The notes under the pieces were generated by a model. The model did no database searches, was not told the DNA's origin, and saw nothing but the letters and a program-made list of their open reading frames with translations. From NCBI GenBank assembly GCA_026004195.1, contig BPIQ01000004.1, positions 40,923-104,922 of the forward strand: a DNA stretch of 64,000 bases, given 5' to 3'. Source of the stretch: Candidatus Binatia bacterium (GTDB lineage Bacteria > Desulfobacterota > Binatia > HRBIN30 > BPIQ01). The stretch's first letter is position 1; each line of letters opens with the position of its first letter. A program made the translations under genes and the position numbers. Below are positions 31,616-51,400 of the stretch, one piece after another.

Positions 31616-34600
31616 CTACCGAAAAATCGAGGGCCCCACCGCACTCGACGCCGATCTCGCTGCGAAGAACGACCCGCCGGTACCTCGGGGCGAAGGCAAG
31701 AAGATCGCCTGGATCGTGAACTCGAGCTCGGAAAAAGCTCCCTGCTCGAAACCCTCGTCCCCTCCCGTGCCGCGCGAAGTTTCGCGCCGACACAGGACCG
31801 GCCGACCGGAAGCAAGACGCCGGAGAGCACCGACAAGATCCGCGGCAACCGCGCGGCGAGTGGCGCACGTTTCTTCGCCGGACGGTGTGGGACTCGGAGA
31901 GGCGGGGAGCTCTGGCTCGACCGTGCTTGTCGAGGTGGGCTCCGGGGTCCCCGTCGGTCGCGGCGTGGCCGCACTTTCGGAGCTTTCCGTGGGCGTCTCG
32001 GCCGCAGTCGGGCGCTGTGTGGGAGCCAACGTGGGCGTTCGTACCGGGCTCGGAAGGGCCGTGAGCGAGCCCGCGGGCGTCGGGGTCACCGTCGGTTCGG
32101 AAGACAAGGTGGGGCTCCACGTCGCAGTTGCCGTGGGAGACGGAGGCGGCGTAGGAGCCCGGGTCGTCCCGAACGACGGTGTCACCGCGGGTGAAGGGGT
32201 AGGGGTGACCGTGGTCGGCGTTCGGGTGGAGGACGGAGTGTGCGTGGCGGTCGGAGTGAGGGTCGGTGTCGTCGGCGAGAAGCTCGGCGTCGCCGAGGGC
32301 GACAGCGTGGGCGTCCGAGTCGCCGTGAGTGTCGCCGTGAAGGACGGAACCGGAGTCGGCGTCCCGCTCGGCGTGGAAGTCGAGGACGGCGTCCCCGTCG
32401 GAGTCACGGTCGGTGTCCCCGAAGGCGTCGCGGTCGCACTCGGCTCGGGAGTGTAGGTGGGCGTGGACGACGGAGTTCCGCTCGGACTCGGCGTGGCCGT
32501 CGCCGAAGGACTCGGGCTCGCCGTCGGCCTCGGTGTCGACGAGGGTGTTCCGGTGGCCGACGGCGTCGGACTCGGGCTCGGAGTCCGCGTAGGCGTCGGA
32601 GTATCCGTCACTGTCGGCGTGGGCGTCGGGGTCCGCGACGGCGTGCGGCTCGCGGTCGCGGTCGGCGTCGGCGTGCGGGTCCGCGACGGGGTGTGCGTCG
32701 GCACGGGAGAGGGAGTGAGAGTTGGCGTGGCCGTGCGGGTCGGAGTCACGGTCGGTGTCCGAGTGAAGGTCGGCGTAAGCGTGGGCGACGGCGTGTGGCT
32801 CGCCGTCCGGGTCGGGGTCCACGAAGGCGTGAAAGTACGCGTGGGTGTGTAGGTCGCCGTGCGGGTCGGGGTGGCCGTACTCGAAGGCGTCCGAGTGGGA
32901 GAGGCAGTGAAGGTGGAAGTTCGGGTGGAGGACGGAGTGTGCGTGGCGGTCGGAGTGAGGGTCGGTGTCGTCGTCGGCGAGAAGCTCGGCGTCGCCGAGG
33001 GCGACAGCGTGGGCGTCCGAGTCGCCGTGGGTGTCCCCGTGAAGGACGGAACCGGAGTCGGCGTCCCACTCGGCGTGGAAGTCGAGGACGGCGTCCCCGT
33101 CGGAGTCACGGTCGGTGTCCCCGAAGGCGTCGCGGTCGCACTCGGCTCGGGAGTGTAGGTGGGCGTGGACGACGGAGTTCCGCTCGGACTCGGCGTGGCC
33201 GTCGCCGAAGGACTCGGGCTCGCCGTCGGCCTCGGTGTCGACGAGGGTGTTCGGGTGGCCGACGGCGTCGGACTCGGGCTCGGAGTCCGCGTAGGCGTCG
33301 GAGTGTCCGTCACTGTCGGCGTGGGCGTCGGAGTCCGCGACGGTGTGCGGCTCGCGGTCGGCGTCGGCGTGCGGGTCCGCGACGGCGTGCGCGTCGGAGT
33401 CGCAGAGGGAGTGAGAGTTCGCGTGGCCGTGCGGGTCGGAGTCACGGTCGGTGTCCGAGTGAAGGTCGGCGTAAGCGTGGGCGACGGCGTGTGGCTCGCC
33501 GTCCGGGTCGGGGTCCACGAAGGCGTGAAAGTACGCGTGGGTGTGTAGGTCGCCGTCCGGCTCGGGGTCGCCGTGCGGGTCGGGGTGGCCGTACTCGAAG
33601 GCGTCCGAGTGGGAGAGGCAGTGAAGGTGGAAGTTCGGGTGGAGGACGGAGTGTGCGTGGCGGTCGGAGTGAGGGTCGGTGTCGTCGTCGGCGAGAAGCT
33701 CGGCGTCGCCGAGGGCGACAGCGTGGCCGTCCGAGTCGCCGTGGGTGTCGCCGTGGGCGTCCCCGTGAAGGACGGAACCGGAGTCGGCGTCCCGCTCGGC
33801 GTGGAAGTCGAGGACGGCGTCCCCGTCGGAGTCACGGTCGGTGTCCCCGAAGGCGTCGCGGTCGCACTCGGCTCGGGAGTCGGCGTGATCGTCGGCGCCG
33901 GTTCCGTGGCCGTCGGCGTCGAAGTTGCGGTCGGCGTGGCGGTGGGTCCGCCACCCGACAAGGGATACGCGAACTCGGCGGCAGCCATGTCGTCGCTTCG
34001 GAGGTCCGCACACCGGCCGTCGAAATGAGCCGCGGCCGACATCGTGGCATCGGGGTCTTCGGAGTGTCCGAATCCCAGCGCGTGTCCGATCTCGTGGGTG
34101 GCGATTTCCGCCAGGTTGCAAGGCGTCCAGTGCTTGCAATTGCCCCAGCCGTTGGCGAAAAGGACCTTCCCTACCATGATCCGGCGGAACGTGACGCCGT
34201 TCACCTCCCTCGTCTGGGCAGACGTGGCGCAGTAGCCGCCGAGTGCGAGCACGCCGCTGCAGCTCGTAGGGTCGGCGATCTCGTCGAAGGGATCGTTGAA
34301 CACCACACGGTTTCCTCCCGTGCACCCGGAATAGGGAACCGGATCGATCGACCCCCCGTTTCCGAGAACGACCGACGACGACGGCAGAAAAGTCCACGCG
34401 TCCAGTGCGGCCTCGACGGCGCCGAGAGAAACCTCGGGACCGAGGGTCACGTCGCCGGTGGCGTCCACGAAAAAATCGACCCTTGCCCCTTCGTCGAACT
34501 CGAACCAGCGGGACGGCGTACCGAGGAAAACGAACGGCTCGCTCGCCTCCCTGGTTCCTTCGTCGGAGCCTTGGGAGGCCAGCACCAGCTCGGCGGACCG

Positions 34601-35176
34601 TTCGCGTACGAGAGAGCCGGCAAACCCCTCCCGTGCCCACTGCCGAAGTCGCACCGCCAAGAGGTCGTAGTCGGCCGTTTCGGGTGGGGGTTCGCGCACC
34701 ACAACCCTGGCCTCGTGGTCCAAAACGGCCACGCCCTCACCGTAATGCCGCGAAGCCAGGCGCACGCCCCTGCGCGCCGAGACCGTGTACTTCCCCATGC
34801 TCATCCCTGTCGTCCGTAGCTCCCCCGAGCGCGACGCACCGAAGAACACCAGGACTTCTTCGCCCGTAGCGAACTCCGGAGCGCCGAAGATACGCTCGGT
34901 CAGGTCTCCGACGCTGCCACCCCTTTCGTGCAACACGAGCTTCTCCCCTGGCCGAACGGGTCCCCAGAACGCTTCGTCCACCTCGATGGTCACCAGCGTC
35001 GTCACTCCCGTCGAGGCCCGATCGAAGCGCGTTCGGACGTTCGTCACCCAGCCGTGCACTGCGCCGAGCGATTGCGCAGCGAGTTGCCATTCGTCGAGCG
35101 GCACGAAGGTGCTGGCGTTGGCCGTGGCCCAGAGCAGCAACGAGCTCGAGGCGAGGAAGCGGAGGAAGATCCGCAC
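31616..35176 (-). CDS. Secreted matrixin-like (M10) zinc metalloprotease with a roughly 690-aa Thr/Pro/Ser repeat stalk and a degenerate dockerin-like C-terminus
   Basis: Signal [22 protein letters not shown] (GTG start). [19 protein letters not shown] at 34064-34096 and following. Residues 411-1100 (31877-33946) are T/P/S-rich. The 86-aa tail contains two Cys. Confidence 0.85.
32210..33877 (-). repeat. Long coding tandem repeat: 726-bp unit, 702-bp unit and a partial third unit of about 240 bp
   Basis: Units begin with ccc gag ccg (PEP) at 33877, 33151 and 32449. Antisense track ORFs that start identically at 32457/33159 and at 32859/33573 give offsets of 702 and 714 bp. Confidence 0.9.
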
Positions 35177-35904
35177 CGCGCCGCGAGCGCAGCGCGAAGG
35201 TCATGCCACGACGTTGCCGACCGGAATGCGAAAGTTCGTGAGCCCCGCGAGCCTCCTACTCGGCGAATTCTCGACGAACGAGGGAACTCGGCGCTCGGAC
35301 GAGCCGGACGACCGAGCAGCCCTCAAGGAAGAAACCGCCGAATTTGCTCGAGCAAACCGCAGAACGCGGGAGAGAACTAGCGCCCCTTCGCCTGCACGAG
35401 CGCGGAAACTTTCCGGAACATCGCCACGGCAAGGCACAGAACGAGAAGGATGCCCGCAGCGGAAAGCGGAGACGGTACGACCGGGATCGGCGGAGGAGGA
35501 GGTCGGACGGGGTCGACGACCGTGTCCGAATCGTTGTCCGGGTTGGTGTCGTTCTCCGTGAAGACCGTCGCCGTGTTCGTGAGCTCGCCCGCTGCACCCG
35601 CCGTCACGTTCACCGTGACCGTGATCGTGGGGAAGGACAGTCCCGGGCCGAGCGAGTCGTTTCGACTGCAGTCGACGAAAACGGCCGTCGAAGCGGAGCA
35701 ATCCCAGCCCGTGCCACCCACCGAAACGATCTGAAGGCCTGCAGGTAGCGGGTCCGTCACTTGGACGGGAAGATTGGTCGCCACTGCGGACACGTTGGTC
35801 ACGGTGAGCAGATACTGCGCCTGGCCTCCCACGACGAACGGACCGACGCTGGTCTTCTCGATCTCGAGGTCCGGCGGTTCCTGACCGCCGCCATCCTCCT
35901 CGAA

Positions 35905-37010
35905 AGTCGGAGTCGGAGTCGGTGTCTCCGCCACCGTCGGCGTCTCGGTCACGCTCGGCGTCGCCGTAAGCGTCACCGTGGGTGTCTCGGTCACCGTCGG
36001 CGTCGCCGTATCCGTCACGGTCGGTGTCAGGGTGACGGTCGGAGTCGGTGTCTCCGTCACCGTCGGCGTGTCGGTCACGCCCGGCGTCGCCGTCAGCGTC
36101 ACCGTGGGCGTCTCGGTCACCGTGGGCGTCTCGGTCACCGTCGGCGTGGCCGTATCCGTCACGGTCGGTGTCAGGGTGACGGTCGGAGTCGGTGTCTCCG
36201 TCACCGTCGGAGTCCGGGTCACGCTCGGTGTCGCCGTCAGCGTCACCGTCGGCGTCTCGGTCACCGTCGGCGTGGCCGTATCCGTCACGGTCGGCGGGCT
36301 GTCAGGGTGACGGCCGGAGTCGGCGTCTCCGTCACCGTCGGCGTCTCGGTCACCGTCGGCGTCGCCGTAAGCGTCACCGTCGGCGTCTCGGTCACCGTCG
36401 GCGTGGCCGTATCCGTCACGGTCGGTGTCAGCGTGACGGTCGGAGTCGGTGTCTCCGTCACCGTCGGCGTCTCGGTCACGCTCGGCGTCGCCGTAAGCGT
36501 CACCGTGGGCGTCTCGGTCACCGTCGGCGTCGCCGTATCCGTCACGGTCGGCGTCAGGGTGACGGTCGGAGTCGGTGTCTCCGTCACCGTCGGAGTCTCG
36601 GTCACGCTCGGCGTCGCCGTAAGCGTCACCGTGGGCGTCTCGGTCACCGTCGGTGTGGCCGTATCCGTCACGGTCGGTGTCAGGGTGACGGTTGAAGTCG
36701 GCGTCTCCGTCACCGTCGGCGTCTCGGTCACCGTCGGCGTCGCCGTAAGCGTCACCGTCGGCGTCTCGGTCACCGTCGGTGTGGCCGTATCCGTCACGGT
36801 CGGTGTCAGGGTGACGGTCGGAGTCGGTGTCTCCGTCACCGTCGGCGTCCGGGTCACGCTGGGGGTCGGTCACGCTCGGTGTCGCGTCGTCACCGTGGGC
36901 GTTTCGGTCACCGTGGGTGTCGGGGTTTCCGTCACAGTCGGTGTTCGGGTGTGCGTGGGGGTGAGCGTCGGTTCCGGTGTGGGGGTCCGTGTCGGTGTCT
37001 CTCCCGGACA
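35905..37010 (-). repeat. 126-bp coding tandem repeat array (42-aa unit TPTVTDTA-TPTVTE-TPTVTLTA-TPSVTE-TPTVTE-TPTPTVTL)
   Basis: The marker cagggtgac recurs at 36028, 36172, 36303, 36429, 36555, 36681 and 36807, giving spacings of 144, 131, 126, 126, 126 and 126 bp. Confidence 0.9.
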
Positions 37011-38084
37011 AGGAGTGCACGCCGGCCCGAGAACCGTCGTCAGCGTGCAGTCCGTCCCGGCCTTCGTCCCTACCGTCAGCGCCCCCGTCGGAACGTTCCC
37101 CGCGAGCGTCAACGTGAACGTCTCGCACTCGTCCGCTTCGAGCTCCAGATCGTCGAACTTGAAAACGTCACCCTCGTCCAGGTCGGGGAAACAGGTGGGA
37201 TCCTTCGTTCCCGTCTCCTCGGCACCCGAGCTTCCCACGACCTCGAACTCGCTCAGACAAGCCTCGAGGGCCGAGAGATCGAACGTGAGATGACTCAAGT
37301 CGTGGAACGGAGTCGCCGGACAGCTCGTCGCGCCCCCGTCCTTCCCGCAAACCTCCCACGTGAAGGTCGTGTTCGTCCCGTCGAAAACGCTCGACACGAG
37401 CGTCACGAGAAAACCGTTCGCCGTACAGACCGATGCCGGCGGACAAACGACCACCCCCGCACCCCCGGACGGAGTGTGCGTCGGCGTCTCCGTGACGGTT
37501 TGGGTCGGCGGCAGCGTCCCCGTAGGCGTCCTCGTCACCGTCGGTGTCTTGGTCGGTTTCGGCGTCTTCGTCGGTTTCGGCGTCTTGGTCGGTTTCCGTG
37601 TCTTGGTGGGTTTCGGTGTCTTCGTCGGCGTCGCGGTCCCTCCCGCGCACGGAGTGCACGCCGGCCCGAGAACCGTCGTGAACTCGCAGTCCGGTCCGGC
37701 CTTCGTGCCTACGATCAGGCCTCCGGTCGGAACGTTCCCTGCGAGCGTCAACGTGAACGTCCGACACTCGTCCGCTTCGAGCTCCAGCTCGTCGAACTTG
37801 AAAACTTCACCTTTGCCGAGAGCGGGAAAACACGTGGGATCCTTCGTGTCCGTCTCGTCGGCACCGGAGCCTCCCACGACCTCGAACTCGCCCGGGCAGA
37901 CCTCGAGCGCCAAAAGATCGAACGTAAGATGACTCAAGTCGTGGAACGGAGTCGCGGGACAGCTCGTCGCGCCCCCGTCCTTCCCGCAAACCTCCCACGT
38001 GAAGGTCGTATTCGTCCCGTCGAAAACGCTGGATACGAGCGTCACGAGAAAACCGTTCGCCGTGCAGACCGACGCCGGCGGACA
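37008..38084 (-). repeat. 639-bp-offset duplication encoding two copies of a 146-aa, 10-Cys domain, separated by a (PTKTPK)n linker
   Basis: Copies at 37647-38084 and 37008-37445. atgactcaagtcgtggaacgg occurs at both 37290 and 37929. The linker is an 18-nt repeat at about 37540-37630. Confidence 0.9.
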
Positions 38085-38394
38085 AGCCCCCGCCGTGGGA
38101 CTGCCCGATGGAATGGGTGTGGGCGTCTTGGTCACGCTGTGAGCCAGCGCTGCCGAACCGCAAACCGCAAGAAAAAAGAAACCGGTCAGAACGCAGCGGC
38201 GGGACATAGGAACTCGGGATTCCGGCCTTGTCGACCCGGAAGCTTTCACCGTCACCGAGCGCTTTCCCGGACGACCAGAAACGTCGGAACAAAACGGTAC
38301 ATTCGTGACCTCTTCGCTCGGCTTCGGGAACATCGGATACCAGCGAGCGCCCCTCTCGCAGCGCAGTATCGCCCGCGCGCCAAGGAAAAGGCAA

Positions 38395-38505
38395 GGGCAA
38401 AGATTTTTCTCTACACCTTTTCCCTAGCGAAAATTTTTTCCCTAGCGAAAATTTTCCCGGCCGAGAAACCGAAGGATCGACCGGCGCGCCAAAATTTTGC
38501 CTAGG
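38395..38505 (-). promoter_or_regulatory. AT-rich putative promoter/operator region of the giant surface-protein gene
   Basis: Locally AT-rich within GC-rich DNA. Contains the 18-bp tandem repeat and a related aaaattttgcctagg (38491-38505). No -35/-10 boxes assigned. Confidence 0.35.
38420..38455. repeat. Perfect 18-bp tandem direct repeat (ttccctagcgaaaatttt, two copies) in an AT-rich island
   Basis: Read directly at 38420-38437 and 38438-38455, followed by a partial cccgg. It lies about 215-250 bp upstream of the giant gene start at 38207. Confidence 0.85.
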
Positions 38506-38580
38506 CTACGTCGGATACCCGTGCTCTAGCTTCTTCGCTGGCTCGCGCTGGTTGGCGAAGCTCCGTGACTTGCGAACTGC

Positions 38581-39021
38581 TCAAGGGACACAGAGCACCG
38601 GTCGCGTAGCCGCTCGCAGGACACGCTCGGCGGTACTGCCGAAAAGAACCTTTTCGAGCGCTCCGCCCGTACCGCGGCTTCCCACGACGATCAGCCCGCA
38701 GTCGAGATCGTTCGCCACTTTCACGATCTCGACGAAAGGAATCCCTTCGACCACCATTTTTTCGACGCCGGCAGTCTCCCGGCCGGAAAAAAGGATAGCG
38801 AACTCCCTTTCGGCCCTCTCCCTGAGCGTTCGCATCGCTTCGTCGAACGTGGAAAGCCCGAGCTGCTCCACGGAACGGGCCAGCTCCGCATCGACGATGT
38901 GAAGCAGCGTCACGTCGGTTTCCCGCCGGCGCCACGCGAGCACGAGGTCGAAGGCCCGCATGGCGGAAGGCGAGAAATCCATGGCCACGAGAATGGAATC
39001 GGGAAAGGCACCGTCCGGCAT
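38581..39021 (-). CDS. Universal stress protein (UspA family)
   Basis: [16 protein letters not shown] ... [39 protein letters not shown], the Usp ATP-binding pattern. Confidence 0.88.
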
Positions 39022-50184: not shown

Positions 50185-50961
50185 TCAGCAGACGAAAGGA
50201 ATGCCGAGGGGAGTGAACGTCGGCGTCCGGGTGGGACGCGGCGTGTGCGTCGGAGTGGGACTCGCTTCGGGGGTGAAGCTCGGGGTAGGCGTCGTGGTCG
50301 GCGTCGGCGTAAAAGGTTGGCAACCCTGGCCGGGCACGCAGCCTGCCCCCCGCGCCTCCGTGCACCCTTCCGGACACGACCCGCCGGACGGCTCCGCGCA
50401 GAGATCCTCGAGCCCCGGGCACTCGCAGCAGTCCGGACCGGGCGTGGGCGTCAGGGTCGGCGTCGGCGTGAAGGCTTGGCAACCCTGGCCGGGCACGCAG
50501 CCTGCCCCCCGCGCCTCCGTGCACCCTTCCGGACACGACCCGCCGGACGGATCCGCGCAGAGATCCTCGAGCTCCGGACACTCGCAACAGTCCGGGCCCG
50601 GCGTGGGCGTAGGGGTTTCGGTGGGCACGGGTGTTTCCGTGGGAGTCGGCGTCCCTTCGGCGAGAAGCCGCAAAAGCGCCACGATGTCCGCGGCCGACAC
50701 GAGCCCGTCACCGTTCACGTCCTGGTTGGGACAGGCGGGACAGGGGTCGCAGAAGAGAAGGACGATGAGAAGATCCACGTCGGCCGAATCCACGACACCG
50801 TCGCAATTCACGTCGCCCGGTGTCTCGCAAGACCGAGCCTGGGCACACAGAACCGGCTCGCCCGCAGCTCCTTCCAACGATGTCGCAGGCCGGGGCAGGA
50901 GAACGTAGGAAAGCAGGAGGAAAAACCCCAGGATGACCGAGGCCGCAAAGGATCTTCGCAC
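50185..50961 (-). CDS. Small secreted protein: dockerin-like repeat pair, Thr/Pro linkers and two 8-Cys modules
   Basis: GTG 50961 lies 9 nt after gaggaggga. Signal RRSFAASVILGFFLLLSYVLL. GDVNCDGVVDSADVDLLIVLLF and QDVNGDGLVSAADIVALLRLL at 50662-50814. GPDCCECP.LEDLCA.PSGGSCPEGCTEARGAGCVPGQGCQ occurs twice at 50317-50598. Confidence 0.75.
   Translation of the reverse strand: MRRSFAASVILGFFLLLSYVLLPRPATSLEGAAGEPVLCAQARSCETPGDVNCDGVVDSADVDLLIVLLFCDPCPACPNQDVNGDGLVSAADIVALLRLLAEGTPTPTETPVPTETPTPTPGPDCCECPELEDLCADPSGGSCPEGCTEARGAGCVPGQGCQAFTPTPTLTPTPGPDCCECPGLEDLCAEPSGGSCPEGCTEARGAGCVPGQGCQPFTPTPTTTPTPSFTPEASPTPTHTPRPTRTPTFTPLGIPFVC
50281..50598 (-). repeat. 159-bp coding tandem repeat (two units) encoding the 8-Cys module plus TP linker
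   Basis: caaccctggccgggcacgcagcctgcccc occurs at 50321 and 50480, an offset of 159 bp. Confidence 0.9.
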
Positions 50962-51124
50962 GCTTTTCGTCCCTCCTCTGGCTCTCCTCGGGGCGACCCT
51001 TCGGGCCGACCCGGCCACAAGAGCTAGCGGCGCTTTATACGCCCGAGCGGGGTCAACGTCAAGCAAATATCCGCGTCCGGCCACGCGTTGCGACCTTCCG
51101 GGGGCGCGGCTAACATGCCTTCCC

Positions 51125-51400
51125 GTGCGAATTCCCACGACGGAAATCGACCGGTTGGCCGAGCGGATCGTCGACGCTCTCCTGCGTCAGGGCTACGTCC
51201 GGCCCAGGGTGGAGAAGTCGATCCTGGTCGAAAAAGTGGCCGAGCGGATCCGAAAAACGTTCGAAGAGGAAGCGGCCCTCGAAGAGGAAGCCGAGCGCAT
51301 CGTCGCCGCCACGGCCCGCAACGCTCCCGGAATCGACCAGAACCGCATGATCCAGCTCGTCAAAAAGAAGCTCGCCGAGGAACGGGGCTTTCCCCTCTGA
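51125..51400 (+). CDS. DUF507-family protein
   Basis: GTG 51125: VRIPTTEIDRLAERIVDALLRQGYV...MIQLVKKKLAEERGFPL, about 91 aa. Confidence 0.6.
   Translation: MRIPTTEIDRLAERIVDALLRQGYVRPRVEKSILVEKVAERIRKTFEEEAALEEEAERIVAATARNAPGIDQNRMIQLVKKKLAEERGFPL

Follow-up and report, generated by a model that had tools for sequence, protein, structure and literature searches.

The minus strand of a 64,000-nucleotide stretch of DNA from a Candidatus Binatia bacterium (GenBank assembly GCA_026004195.1, contig BPIQ01000004.1, positions 40,923 to 104,922 of the forward strand) encodes a predicted secreted protein with two copies of a cysteine-rich domain of 146 amino acids. The locus raises the question of what this domain is and what it could do at the surface of the cell. 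The whole stretch that was analysed is called the window here; its GC content is approximately 66%. In our study, we came to lean towards the reading that the two copies represent an undescribed extracellular immunoglobulin-like (Ig-like) beta-sandwich domain, which would serve as a putative binding head on a surface stalk made of a Thr/Pro-rich region and a CLIPPER domain. The features of the gene and of its neighbours are listed in Table 1.

Two copies of one domain and the family around them

The minus-strand open reading frame (ORF) from the Met codon at 38207 to the TGA at 36870-36872 encodes a product of 445 amino acids, whose translation carries both copies of the domain. The alignment of copy 1 with copy 2 was gapless, with 389 of the 438 nucleotides (88.8%) and 128 of the 146 amino acids (87.7%) identical. 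All 10 cysteines were found at identical positions, and the copies are exactly 639 nucleotides apart. The 21-mer ATGACTCAAGTCGTGGAACGG was found at 37290 and again at 37929, and the copies share identical runs of up to 53 nucleotides. The likeness of the two copies is far above chance. A preliminary description of the locus had reported two 146-residue, 10-cysteine copies of one domain with an offset of 639 bp and a shared 21-mer, and translation and alignment bore out each of these points. It had further taken the duplication to be recent or homogenised, and this part did not hold. In a Nei-Gojobori count, the synonymous divergence (dS) between the copies was 0.32 and the non-synonymous divergence (dN) was 0.066, with a dN/dS of 0.21. 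The residues 1-57 contained 8 synonymous and no non-synonymous differences, followed by a dN/dS of 0.30 in the residues 58-146. No sharp block of DNA identity, as left by gene conversion, was found between the copies. The synonymous divergence shows that the duplication is not very recent and, together with the low dN/dS and the unchanged residues 1-57, it makes the similarity of the copies a matter of purifying selection on an older duplication. The best explanation is that both copies are under such selection, which acts most strongly on the N-terminal hairpin and the DLSH strand.

Neither copy matched Pfam-A or NCBIfam at E<=10, and among the PDB sequences at the same threshold the sole match was 3h6z (Sfmbt; E 1.5), which is not credible. 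A scan of the genome collection with copy 1 alone found nothing, and a word-indexed search with one copy gave no match among 5.8 billion proteins. This miss reflects the sensitivity limit of the index, because an exhaustive HMMER search recovered the family. With a two-copy profile against 1.84 billion representatives at 50% identity, 31 proteins were found at E<=1e-3, including 7 at E<=1e-10 and none at E<=1e-30 (best 4.7e-24). Two of them (P0010 and P0020) were rejected as repeat-driven artefacts, which leaves approximately 29 genuine members. A family alignment of 32 segments (A2), window copies included, was used for the further searches. The hidden Markov model (HMM) built from it gave the E-values of the two copies in Table 1 and thus itself includes both. 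The full family alignment contained no stretch conserved enough for a genome scan, and a sub-alignment of 7 sequences succeeded. A word-indexed search with the 32-sequence profile returned 5 proteins only, of which the named ones were called 'hypothetical protein'. Similarly, the ten relatives whose clusters were looked up were unnamed or 'hypothetical protein', in clusters of 1-4 sequences.

The A2 alignment contained conserved (F/Y)DGTNTTFTY, DLSH(F/W)xLxL..C, DP...G(I/V)K(W/F)D, TLAG, KAG, and GPxC motifs. The G140 and C143 residues were invariant, followed by C63, D82, K96, D98, G116, K128, and P141, which were at least 90% conserved. The DGTNTT motif was considered as an N-glycosylation sequon and dropped, as its Asp is at position -3 and not at -2 and the motif is presumably at a beta-turn. 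None of the 32 segments had a significant match in Pfam or NCBIfam; the best was PKD (E 0.025) in 2 of the 32. The matches of the segments to PKD, Big, CARDB, FN3, Invasin_D3, and Bact_surface_Ig-like were all below the gathering thresholds, and the family profile gave no match among the PDB sequences. The hosts of the relatives, as given in the record titles, include Candidatus Binatia-type and 'Deltaproteobacteria' metagenome-assembled genomes (MAGs), Anaerolineaceae, Thermotogae, and Acetothermia. Judged by these searches, the family is real, rare, and unannotated, and the window domain is no orphan and belongs to a rare, phylogenetically scattered group that also includes members with two cysteines.

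Predicted fold and pairing of the cysteines

When the two copies were the sole alignment, AlphaFold2 (AF2) gave a poor model with a predicted local distance difference test score (pLDDT) of 52. With A2, the pLDDT was 93.9 and the predicted template modelling score (pTM) was 0.87, and all five models reached at least 89.6. In the model, we counted approximately 10 beta-strands and a single short helix. No PDB structure matched at E<=1e-3 in Foldseek, and the query-normalised template modelling (TM) scores (TMq) of the best matches were 0.50 or lower. The top of the list consisted mostly of bacterial adhesin and pilin sandwiches, such as the Clostridium perfringens pilin 8gsy, RrgA 5mkc, and PsrP 3zgi; further neighbours were the C-domains of SspB, SpaP, and BspA and the CLIPPER structure 9ifr (TMq 0.44). 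Cohesins have a jelly-roll fold, and the match to the cohesin 2vo8 (E 4.6e-3, TMq 0.48, target-normalised TM score 0.51, root mean square deviation 4.8 A) was similar to those of many unrelated sandwiches. In the BFVD fold search, only an uncharacterised giant-virus (Yasminevirus) protein was found (TMq 0.52). As modelled, the domain falls into the broad adhesin/Ig-like class of beta-sandwiches, and neither the PDB nor BFVD contained a structure close to it.

These results agree with the earlier proposals that the domain forms an all-beta sandwich and that it lies outside any named family. The AF2 model is all-beta at the high pLDDT given above, neither the copies nor the 30 homologous segments had a match in Pfam, NCBIfam, or the PDB sequences, and no confident HMM or structural match to an existing family such as cohesin, CARDB, or Big turned up in the profile and Foldseek searches.

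The Ig-like adhesin and pilin sandwiches (CnaA/CnaB-like domains, CLIPPER 9ifr, 8gsy, RrgA 5mkc, and the SspB/SpaP C-domains) resemble the window domain in being extracellular-type all-beta domains of approximately 120-150 amino acids, in occurring in surface proteins with stalks and anchors, and in forming its top Foldseek neighbours. However, no HMM or profile-profile similarity connects them with the window domain, and the TM scores were approximately 0.50 or below. The DUF11 and DUF7507 domains co-occur with the window-type domain in the same proteins, and the CxxC at the C-terminus (CTPC) bears a superficial likeness to the CTTC motif of CLIPPER. The CLIPPER-type domains are found in long stalk arrays, whereas the window-type domain is found once or twice at protein termini. 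Kinship with cohesins and with DUF11 was rejected at the sequence level, as hhalign gave probabilities of 0.1% (cohesin-like) and 0.2% (DUF11). The HMMs of DUF11, DUF7507, and related domains matched neither the copies nor any of the 32 segments, and this search itself works because the gene's own C-terminal DUF11 was readily detected (E 3.2e-15). The idea of an isopeptide domain, which came from the Foldseek neighbours, was not supported by the positions of the conserved Lys residues. The CnaA-like isopeptide domains form an intramolecular bond by a triad of Lys (on the first strand), Asn, and catalytic Asp, whereas the first long strand of the window domain (GFLVTLVSSVF) contains no Lys, the conserved K96 and K128 are on later strands, and up to five disulfides are apparently present instead.

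Wherever a family member was aligned at the positions of C63 and C143, it contained these residues, and this held for the two-Cys relatives too. The remaining eight cysteines were gained or lost as a block; C33, C42, and C107 co-occurred perfectly, and so did C7 and C133. An N-terminal Cys was also found just outside the extracted segment in P0002, P0003, and L013-type proteins. From the co-occurrence of the cysteines and their position along the predicted strands, we infer the disulfide pairs C63-C143, C33-C42, C85-C107, C7-C133, and C1-C146. A DsbA/thioredoxin-like gene (L075, 2770-3573) was found directly downstream of the domain gene of P0032, which fits an oxidised extracytoplasmic protein and disulfide formation.

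Gene layout and architecture of the relatives

Table 1. Features of the domain gene and of neighbouring genes in the window.
Feature	Position	Strand	Evidence
Predicted Sec signal peptide, MSRRCVLTGFFFLAVCGSAALA	38142..38207	(-)	n-region/h-region/AxA pattern; cleavage after ALA inferred
Domain copy 1	37647..38084	(-)	Residues 42-187, 146 amino acids, 10 Cys; independent E-value 1.8e-51 against the A2-built family HMM
Pro/Thr/Lys-rich linker of 67 amino acids between the copies, TKTPKPTKT repeats	37446..37646	(-)	Translation
Domain copy 2	37008..37445	(-)	Residues 255-400, 146 amino acids, 10 Cys; independent E-value 1.1e-52 against the A2-built family HMM
Long Thr/Pro-rich low-complexity stalk, interrupted as assembled	35902..37007	(-)	126-nucleotide tandem units
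In-frame TGA ending the annotated ORF, within the Thr/Pro repeat	36870..36872	(-)	Frame analysis
5-nucleotide insertion GCCCG, absent from neighbouring 126-nucleotide units	36295..36299	(-)	Repeat-unit comparison
DUF11 (renamed CLIPPER) Ig-like stalk domain	35518..35871	(-)	Pfam PF01345 E 3.2e-15; DUF7933 E 6.8e-8
C-terminal tail: Pro-rich segment, ..VPSPLSAAGILLVLCLAVAMFRK.., hydrophobic helix and basic residues	35380..35517	(-)	Translation
Secreted Peptidase_M10 with Thr/Pro linker of approximately 700 amino acids and degenerate dockerin-like tail	31616..35176	(-)	Pfam Peptidase_M10 E 3.9e-8
ORF with genuine Dockerin_1 (GDVNCDGVVDSADV...DVNGDGLVSAADIVALL)	50185-51138 (dockerin approximately 50662-50814)	(-)	E 4.8e-8

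The signal peptide was judged by eye from the translation and not by a predictor. The stalk was found to contain a repeat with a period of 126 nucleotides, 5.9 copies, and 92% matches (Tandem Repeats Finder). A short stretch that is locally out of frame flanks the TGA in this repeat. The reading frame of the domain ORF is open again directly past the TGA (36869-36288), and the GCCCG insertion then moves the reading into the frame of the DUF11 and the C-terminal hydrophobic tail, which runs to 35380. The DUF11 has been renamed CLIPPER and described as a CnaA-like stalk domain of fibrillar adhesins (bioRxiv 10.1101/2025.04.25.650565). The TGA and the insertion together split an apparent gene of approximately 940 codons into three reading-frame pieces. 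From its layout, the intended product is most likely a protein of approximately 940 amino acids with a signal peptide, a head, a linker, a second head, the Thr/Pro stalk, the CLIPPER domain, and a C-terminal anchor-like tail. The tail resembles a sorting or anchor signal that belongs to no curated type, and the similar tail of the relative P0005 matched GVDTG_CTERM below threshold.

The domain had been placed at the N-terminal end of a surface-type protein, and we found it directly after the predicted signal peptide, with the stalk, the DUF11, and the tail encoded downstream. A stalk and an anchor in one polypeptide are thus encoded, but only past the TGA and the 5-nucleotide insertion. In P0005 (512 amino acids), a signal peptide, one head, a Thr/Ala linker, a DUF11, and a C-terminal anchor are present in a single intact ORF, and L087 contained the N-terminal part of this layout (signal peptide, domain, and Thr/Ala linker) up to the end of its contig. 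Upstream of the window gene, a perfect 18-nucleotide direct repeat (TTTTCCCTAGCGAAAATT, 2.1 copies) was found at 38418-38455. It reads GGGAAAA(A)TTTTCGCTAG on the gene strand, lies in an AT-rich intergenic region approximately 210-250 nucleotides upstream of the start codon, and may be a binding site of a regulator. A promoter and terminator scan of 35100-38700 detected nothing.

Most full-length relatives contained the domain directly after the signal peptide, in one or two copies per protein, and long arrays were never seen. The domain was followed by a Cys-rich helical domain or by DUF11, DUF7507 (CLIPPER_2), weak SdrD_B, malectin, or Ig-like repeats, and in P0022 and P0028 it was found between DUF7507 stalk repeats. 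The domain forms the extreme C-terminus of large secreted proteins in the closest relatives (P0001-P0003, L013, L078-L081, and L085). The Cys-rich helical domain was the commonest partner and contained conserved CLTRTxGFWGTHPHI, LAAAKLNL, and PPFDxPGPA motifs. It makes up the C-terminal halves of P0008, P0012-P0014, P0017, P0019, P0025, and P0031-P0035, and more divergent versions of the GFW/GYW type were found in P0009, P0026, and P0027. This partner had no match in Pfam, NCBIfam, or the PDB sequences and therefore gives no functional clue; by the same searches, it is a second undescribed family. The loci L082 (6162-9932) and L083 (1977-6206) encode proteins of more than 1,200 amino acids with two Cys-poor copies of the domain each. 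By eye, these proteins contain a TadG/TadE-like N-terminal hydrophobic segment (...QRGQSIVIVAMAMIVLLIFGAFATDLSFAFFQRRAMQNAADAAALAGA), which hints at surface proteins associated with Flp/Tad pili.

Fibrillar adhesins consist of an adhesive tip, a stalk, and an anchor (Monzon et al., 2021; PMC8286594). The window protein, as reconstructed, has the same layout, with a signal peptide, terminal non-stalk domains, an extended stalk that includes a CLIPPER domain, and an anchor-like tail at the C-terminus. The stalk of the fibrillar adhesins is made of tandem folded repeats, whereas that of the window protein is mostly low-complexity Thr/Pro sequence; the window protein also differs in an anchor type that matches no class, and its adhesive role is putative. 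On the binding-head reading, the protein would be a Sec substrate that its C-terminal tail keeps at the cell surface, and the Thr/Pro stalk would hold both disulfide-stapled heads at a distance from the cell. There, they would bind a putative ligand, which may be a polymer of the environment or of a cell surface, or a partner protein encoded at the same locus, and the protein would act like the adhesive tip of a fibrillar adhesin or like a scaffold protein.

The protease locus and the rival explanations

The next gene downstream is that of the Peptidase_M10 protein, which lies on the same strand approximately 200 nucleotides past the tail, with no terminator-like site between. Its linker consists of roughly three large near-identical repeats, which cause a GC-skew spike at 32-34 kb. 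Its tail (31619-31876) keeps the helix pattern of a dockerin, has lost the Ca-binding Asp/Asn residues, and had no Pfam match. The homologues closest to this protease were from Candidatus Binatia and unclassified MAGs, with at most 50% identity. The OtsA/OtsB fusion protein was nearest to those of Myxococcota and 'Deltaproteobacteria' MAGs (64-65% identity), which places the window in an uncultured high-GC bacterium of this broad group; a scan of 185,579 species genomes found no close relative. Domain genes were found to adjoin the same M10 family in five loci (the window, L004, L013, L081, and L085). In L004, the protease is encoded two genes downstream of P0002, with 44% identity to the window protease over approximately 400 amino acids. 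In L013 it is encoded on both sides of the domain gene, followed by L081, where it is downstream, and L085, where it is upstream.

In six loci, the domain gene is followed by that of p303, a conserved protein of approximately 300 amino acids, and on contigs of sufficient length the protease is encoded next. The p303 protein (L004 3063-3926; L013 8838-9749; also in L081, L085, L078, L079, and L005) ends with ..AMSPLG, a hydrophobic segment, and RR, and a homologue of its N-terminal domain forms the N-terminus of the large upstream protein. It had no Pfam match, and no homologue of it was found in the window. A phmmer match suggests that L005, the closest M10 locus to that of the window (50% identity), has retained p303 and the large upstream protein but lacks the domain. 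The other relatives of the domain have unrelated neighbours, and P0035 adjoins a weak Peptidase_M11 match. The linkage is therefore to a conserved surface-protein and M10 locus and not to every member of the domain family. Within these bounds, the head is most likely functionally connected with the secreted M10 protease locus.

Dockerins and cohesin-like modules were also found among these proteases. Dockerin_1 was faint in the M10 protease of L004 (in a precomputed record) and clearer in that of L013 (E 2.6e-6), which also had a weak Cohesin match (E 0.013). In L013 (9941-12547) and L004 (4251-6617), the M10 domain, a Thr/Ala linker, a CarboxypepD_reg/SdrD_B-like module, Dockerin_1, and a cohesin-like module are present in one polypeptide. 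A total of 30 cohesin-like modules were recovered from 70 M10 loci. Polypeptides of this composition suggest self-assembling or chain-forming secreted proteases. In the window, the dockerin of the ORF 50185-51138 is followed by a Thr/Pro linker and a Cys-rich segment, and the rest of this ORF had no family match.

Several findings weigh against the reading of the domain as the binding head of an anchored surface protein. The P0002-like relatives carry the domain C-terminally in an unanchored protein, and a head on a stalk is thus not universal in the family. The gene is broken as assembled, and if the TGA and the insertion are real, the heads would be secreted without an anchor. The tail of the window protein (35380..35517) matched no curated NCBIfam sorting-signal model. 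Moreover, the M10 family is multi-copy in each genome, and the adjacency at the window locus taken alone is less significant for this reason.

The breaks in the gene could be an assembly error in repetitive DNA or a real mutation or decay. If the gene is decaying, the window copy would be a pseudogene and the domain would be non-functional in this organism. The in-frame TGA and the 5-nucleotide insertion speak for this, as does the absence of an exact match to the 445-residue product on record in the gene collection. However, both lesions are in highly repetitive Thr/Pro-coding DNA, which is prone to assembly and sequencing errors, the copies keep all 10 cysteines at a dN/dS of 0.21, the DUF11 and the tail further downstream have an intact frame of their own, and the truncated ORF still gives a complete predicted secreted protein with two domains. 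We regard decay as improbable. A passive structural module, i.e., a rigid disulfide-stabilised spacer of the stalk like the DUF11/CLIPPER repeats, without a ligand of its own, is unlikely as well, although it is the least unlikely of the alternatives. In its favour, the predicted fold is that of a generic Ig-like sandwich, stalk and pilin domains are among its nearest structures, the domain occurs as a tandem pair here and between DUF7507 repeats in P0022 and P0028, and heavy disulfide stapling suits mechanical or proteolytic resistance. A spacer would not be expected to remain at one or two copies per protein without long arrays, nor to be terminal, directly after the signal peptide, in most relatives. 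The D22, N25, D49, S51, H52, D82, K96, D98, and K128 residues are conserved across the Cys-rich and Cys-poor subfamilies beyond the need of a spacer, and all 8 changes that separate the copies in the residues 1-57 are synonymous.

The protease neighbourhood raises the further explanation of a cohesin analogue, in which the heads dock the dockerin-like tail of the M10 protein or other dockerin proteins (ORF 50185-51138) and form a two-site scaffold that displays proteases. Like the scaffoldin cohesins (PF00963, e.g., 2vo8), the window domain is of similar size (approximately 145 amino acids) and of the beta-sandwich class, has Pro/Thr linkers on a putatively anchored protein, and occurs in the same genomes as dockerin-bearing proteins, the neighbouring-type M10 family included. 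The order of signal peptide, module, linker, module, long Pro/Thr linker, and anchor is scaffoldin-like, the M10 gene is directly downstream without a terminator-like site between, and the homologous proteases in L004 and L013 carry Dockerin_1. A true Dockerin_1 (E 4.8e-8) is encoded at 50185-51138, an HMM of the L013-type cohesin-like modules detected none in the window, and 2vo8 was among the top Foldseek matches (TMq 0.48). In contrast, this structural match is not significant and no better than those of many sandwiches. Pfam Cohesin matched neither copy at E<=10 and none of the 32 segments at E<=1, and hhalign of A2 with 31 local cohesin-like sequences gave a probability of 0.1% (E 0.63). 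Classical cohesins are not cysteine-rich, unlike the window domain. The L004 and L013 proteases hold their own cohesin-like module beside the dockerin, and a canonical partner thus exists in the lineage; the M10 tail of the window lacks Ca-binding residues and is not detected as a dockerin, and most family members have no dockerin protein nearby. With this balance, a cohesin analogue is doubtful, less likely than a spacer and a little ahead of decay. In a wider form, the domain would be a non-canonical disulfide-stapled receptor that docks the M10 dockerin-like tails or another protein of the surface-protein/p303/M10 locus, and we give this no better chance than decay. The least probable of all is a protease partner of another kind, such as an inhibitor, a chaperone, or a substrate-recruiter for the neighbouring M10 protein, comparable to the serralysin-inhibitor gene pairs. 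The linkage of domain and M10 genes in five loci and the weak Peptidase_M11 match beside P0035 would suit it; however, the domain resembles no known inhibitor family, many relatives lack a protease in their neighbourhood, and L005 keeps the large upstream protein without the domain, which ties the protease to the surface-protein locus and not strictly to the domain.

The binding-head reading is thus the one that we prefer, and the domain is a new family, yet it falls within a very common class of bacterial extracellular modules, and an Ig-like module as such will not surprise a specialist. It has a confident predicted fold, clear motifs, and approximately 29 genuine clusters at 50% identity, which would allow its deposition as a family. 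In uncultured bacteria of soil and sediment, this family is associated genomically with secreted zinc proteases of the M10 type. If docking is true, this would be a previously unrecognised system of protease display at the cell surface of uncultured bacteria of the Binatia/Myxococcota type, and its module would have no sequence relationship to cohesins. A protease link in the form of physical docking would reveal the way in which extracellular proteolysis is organised at the surface of these little-known bacteria.

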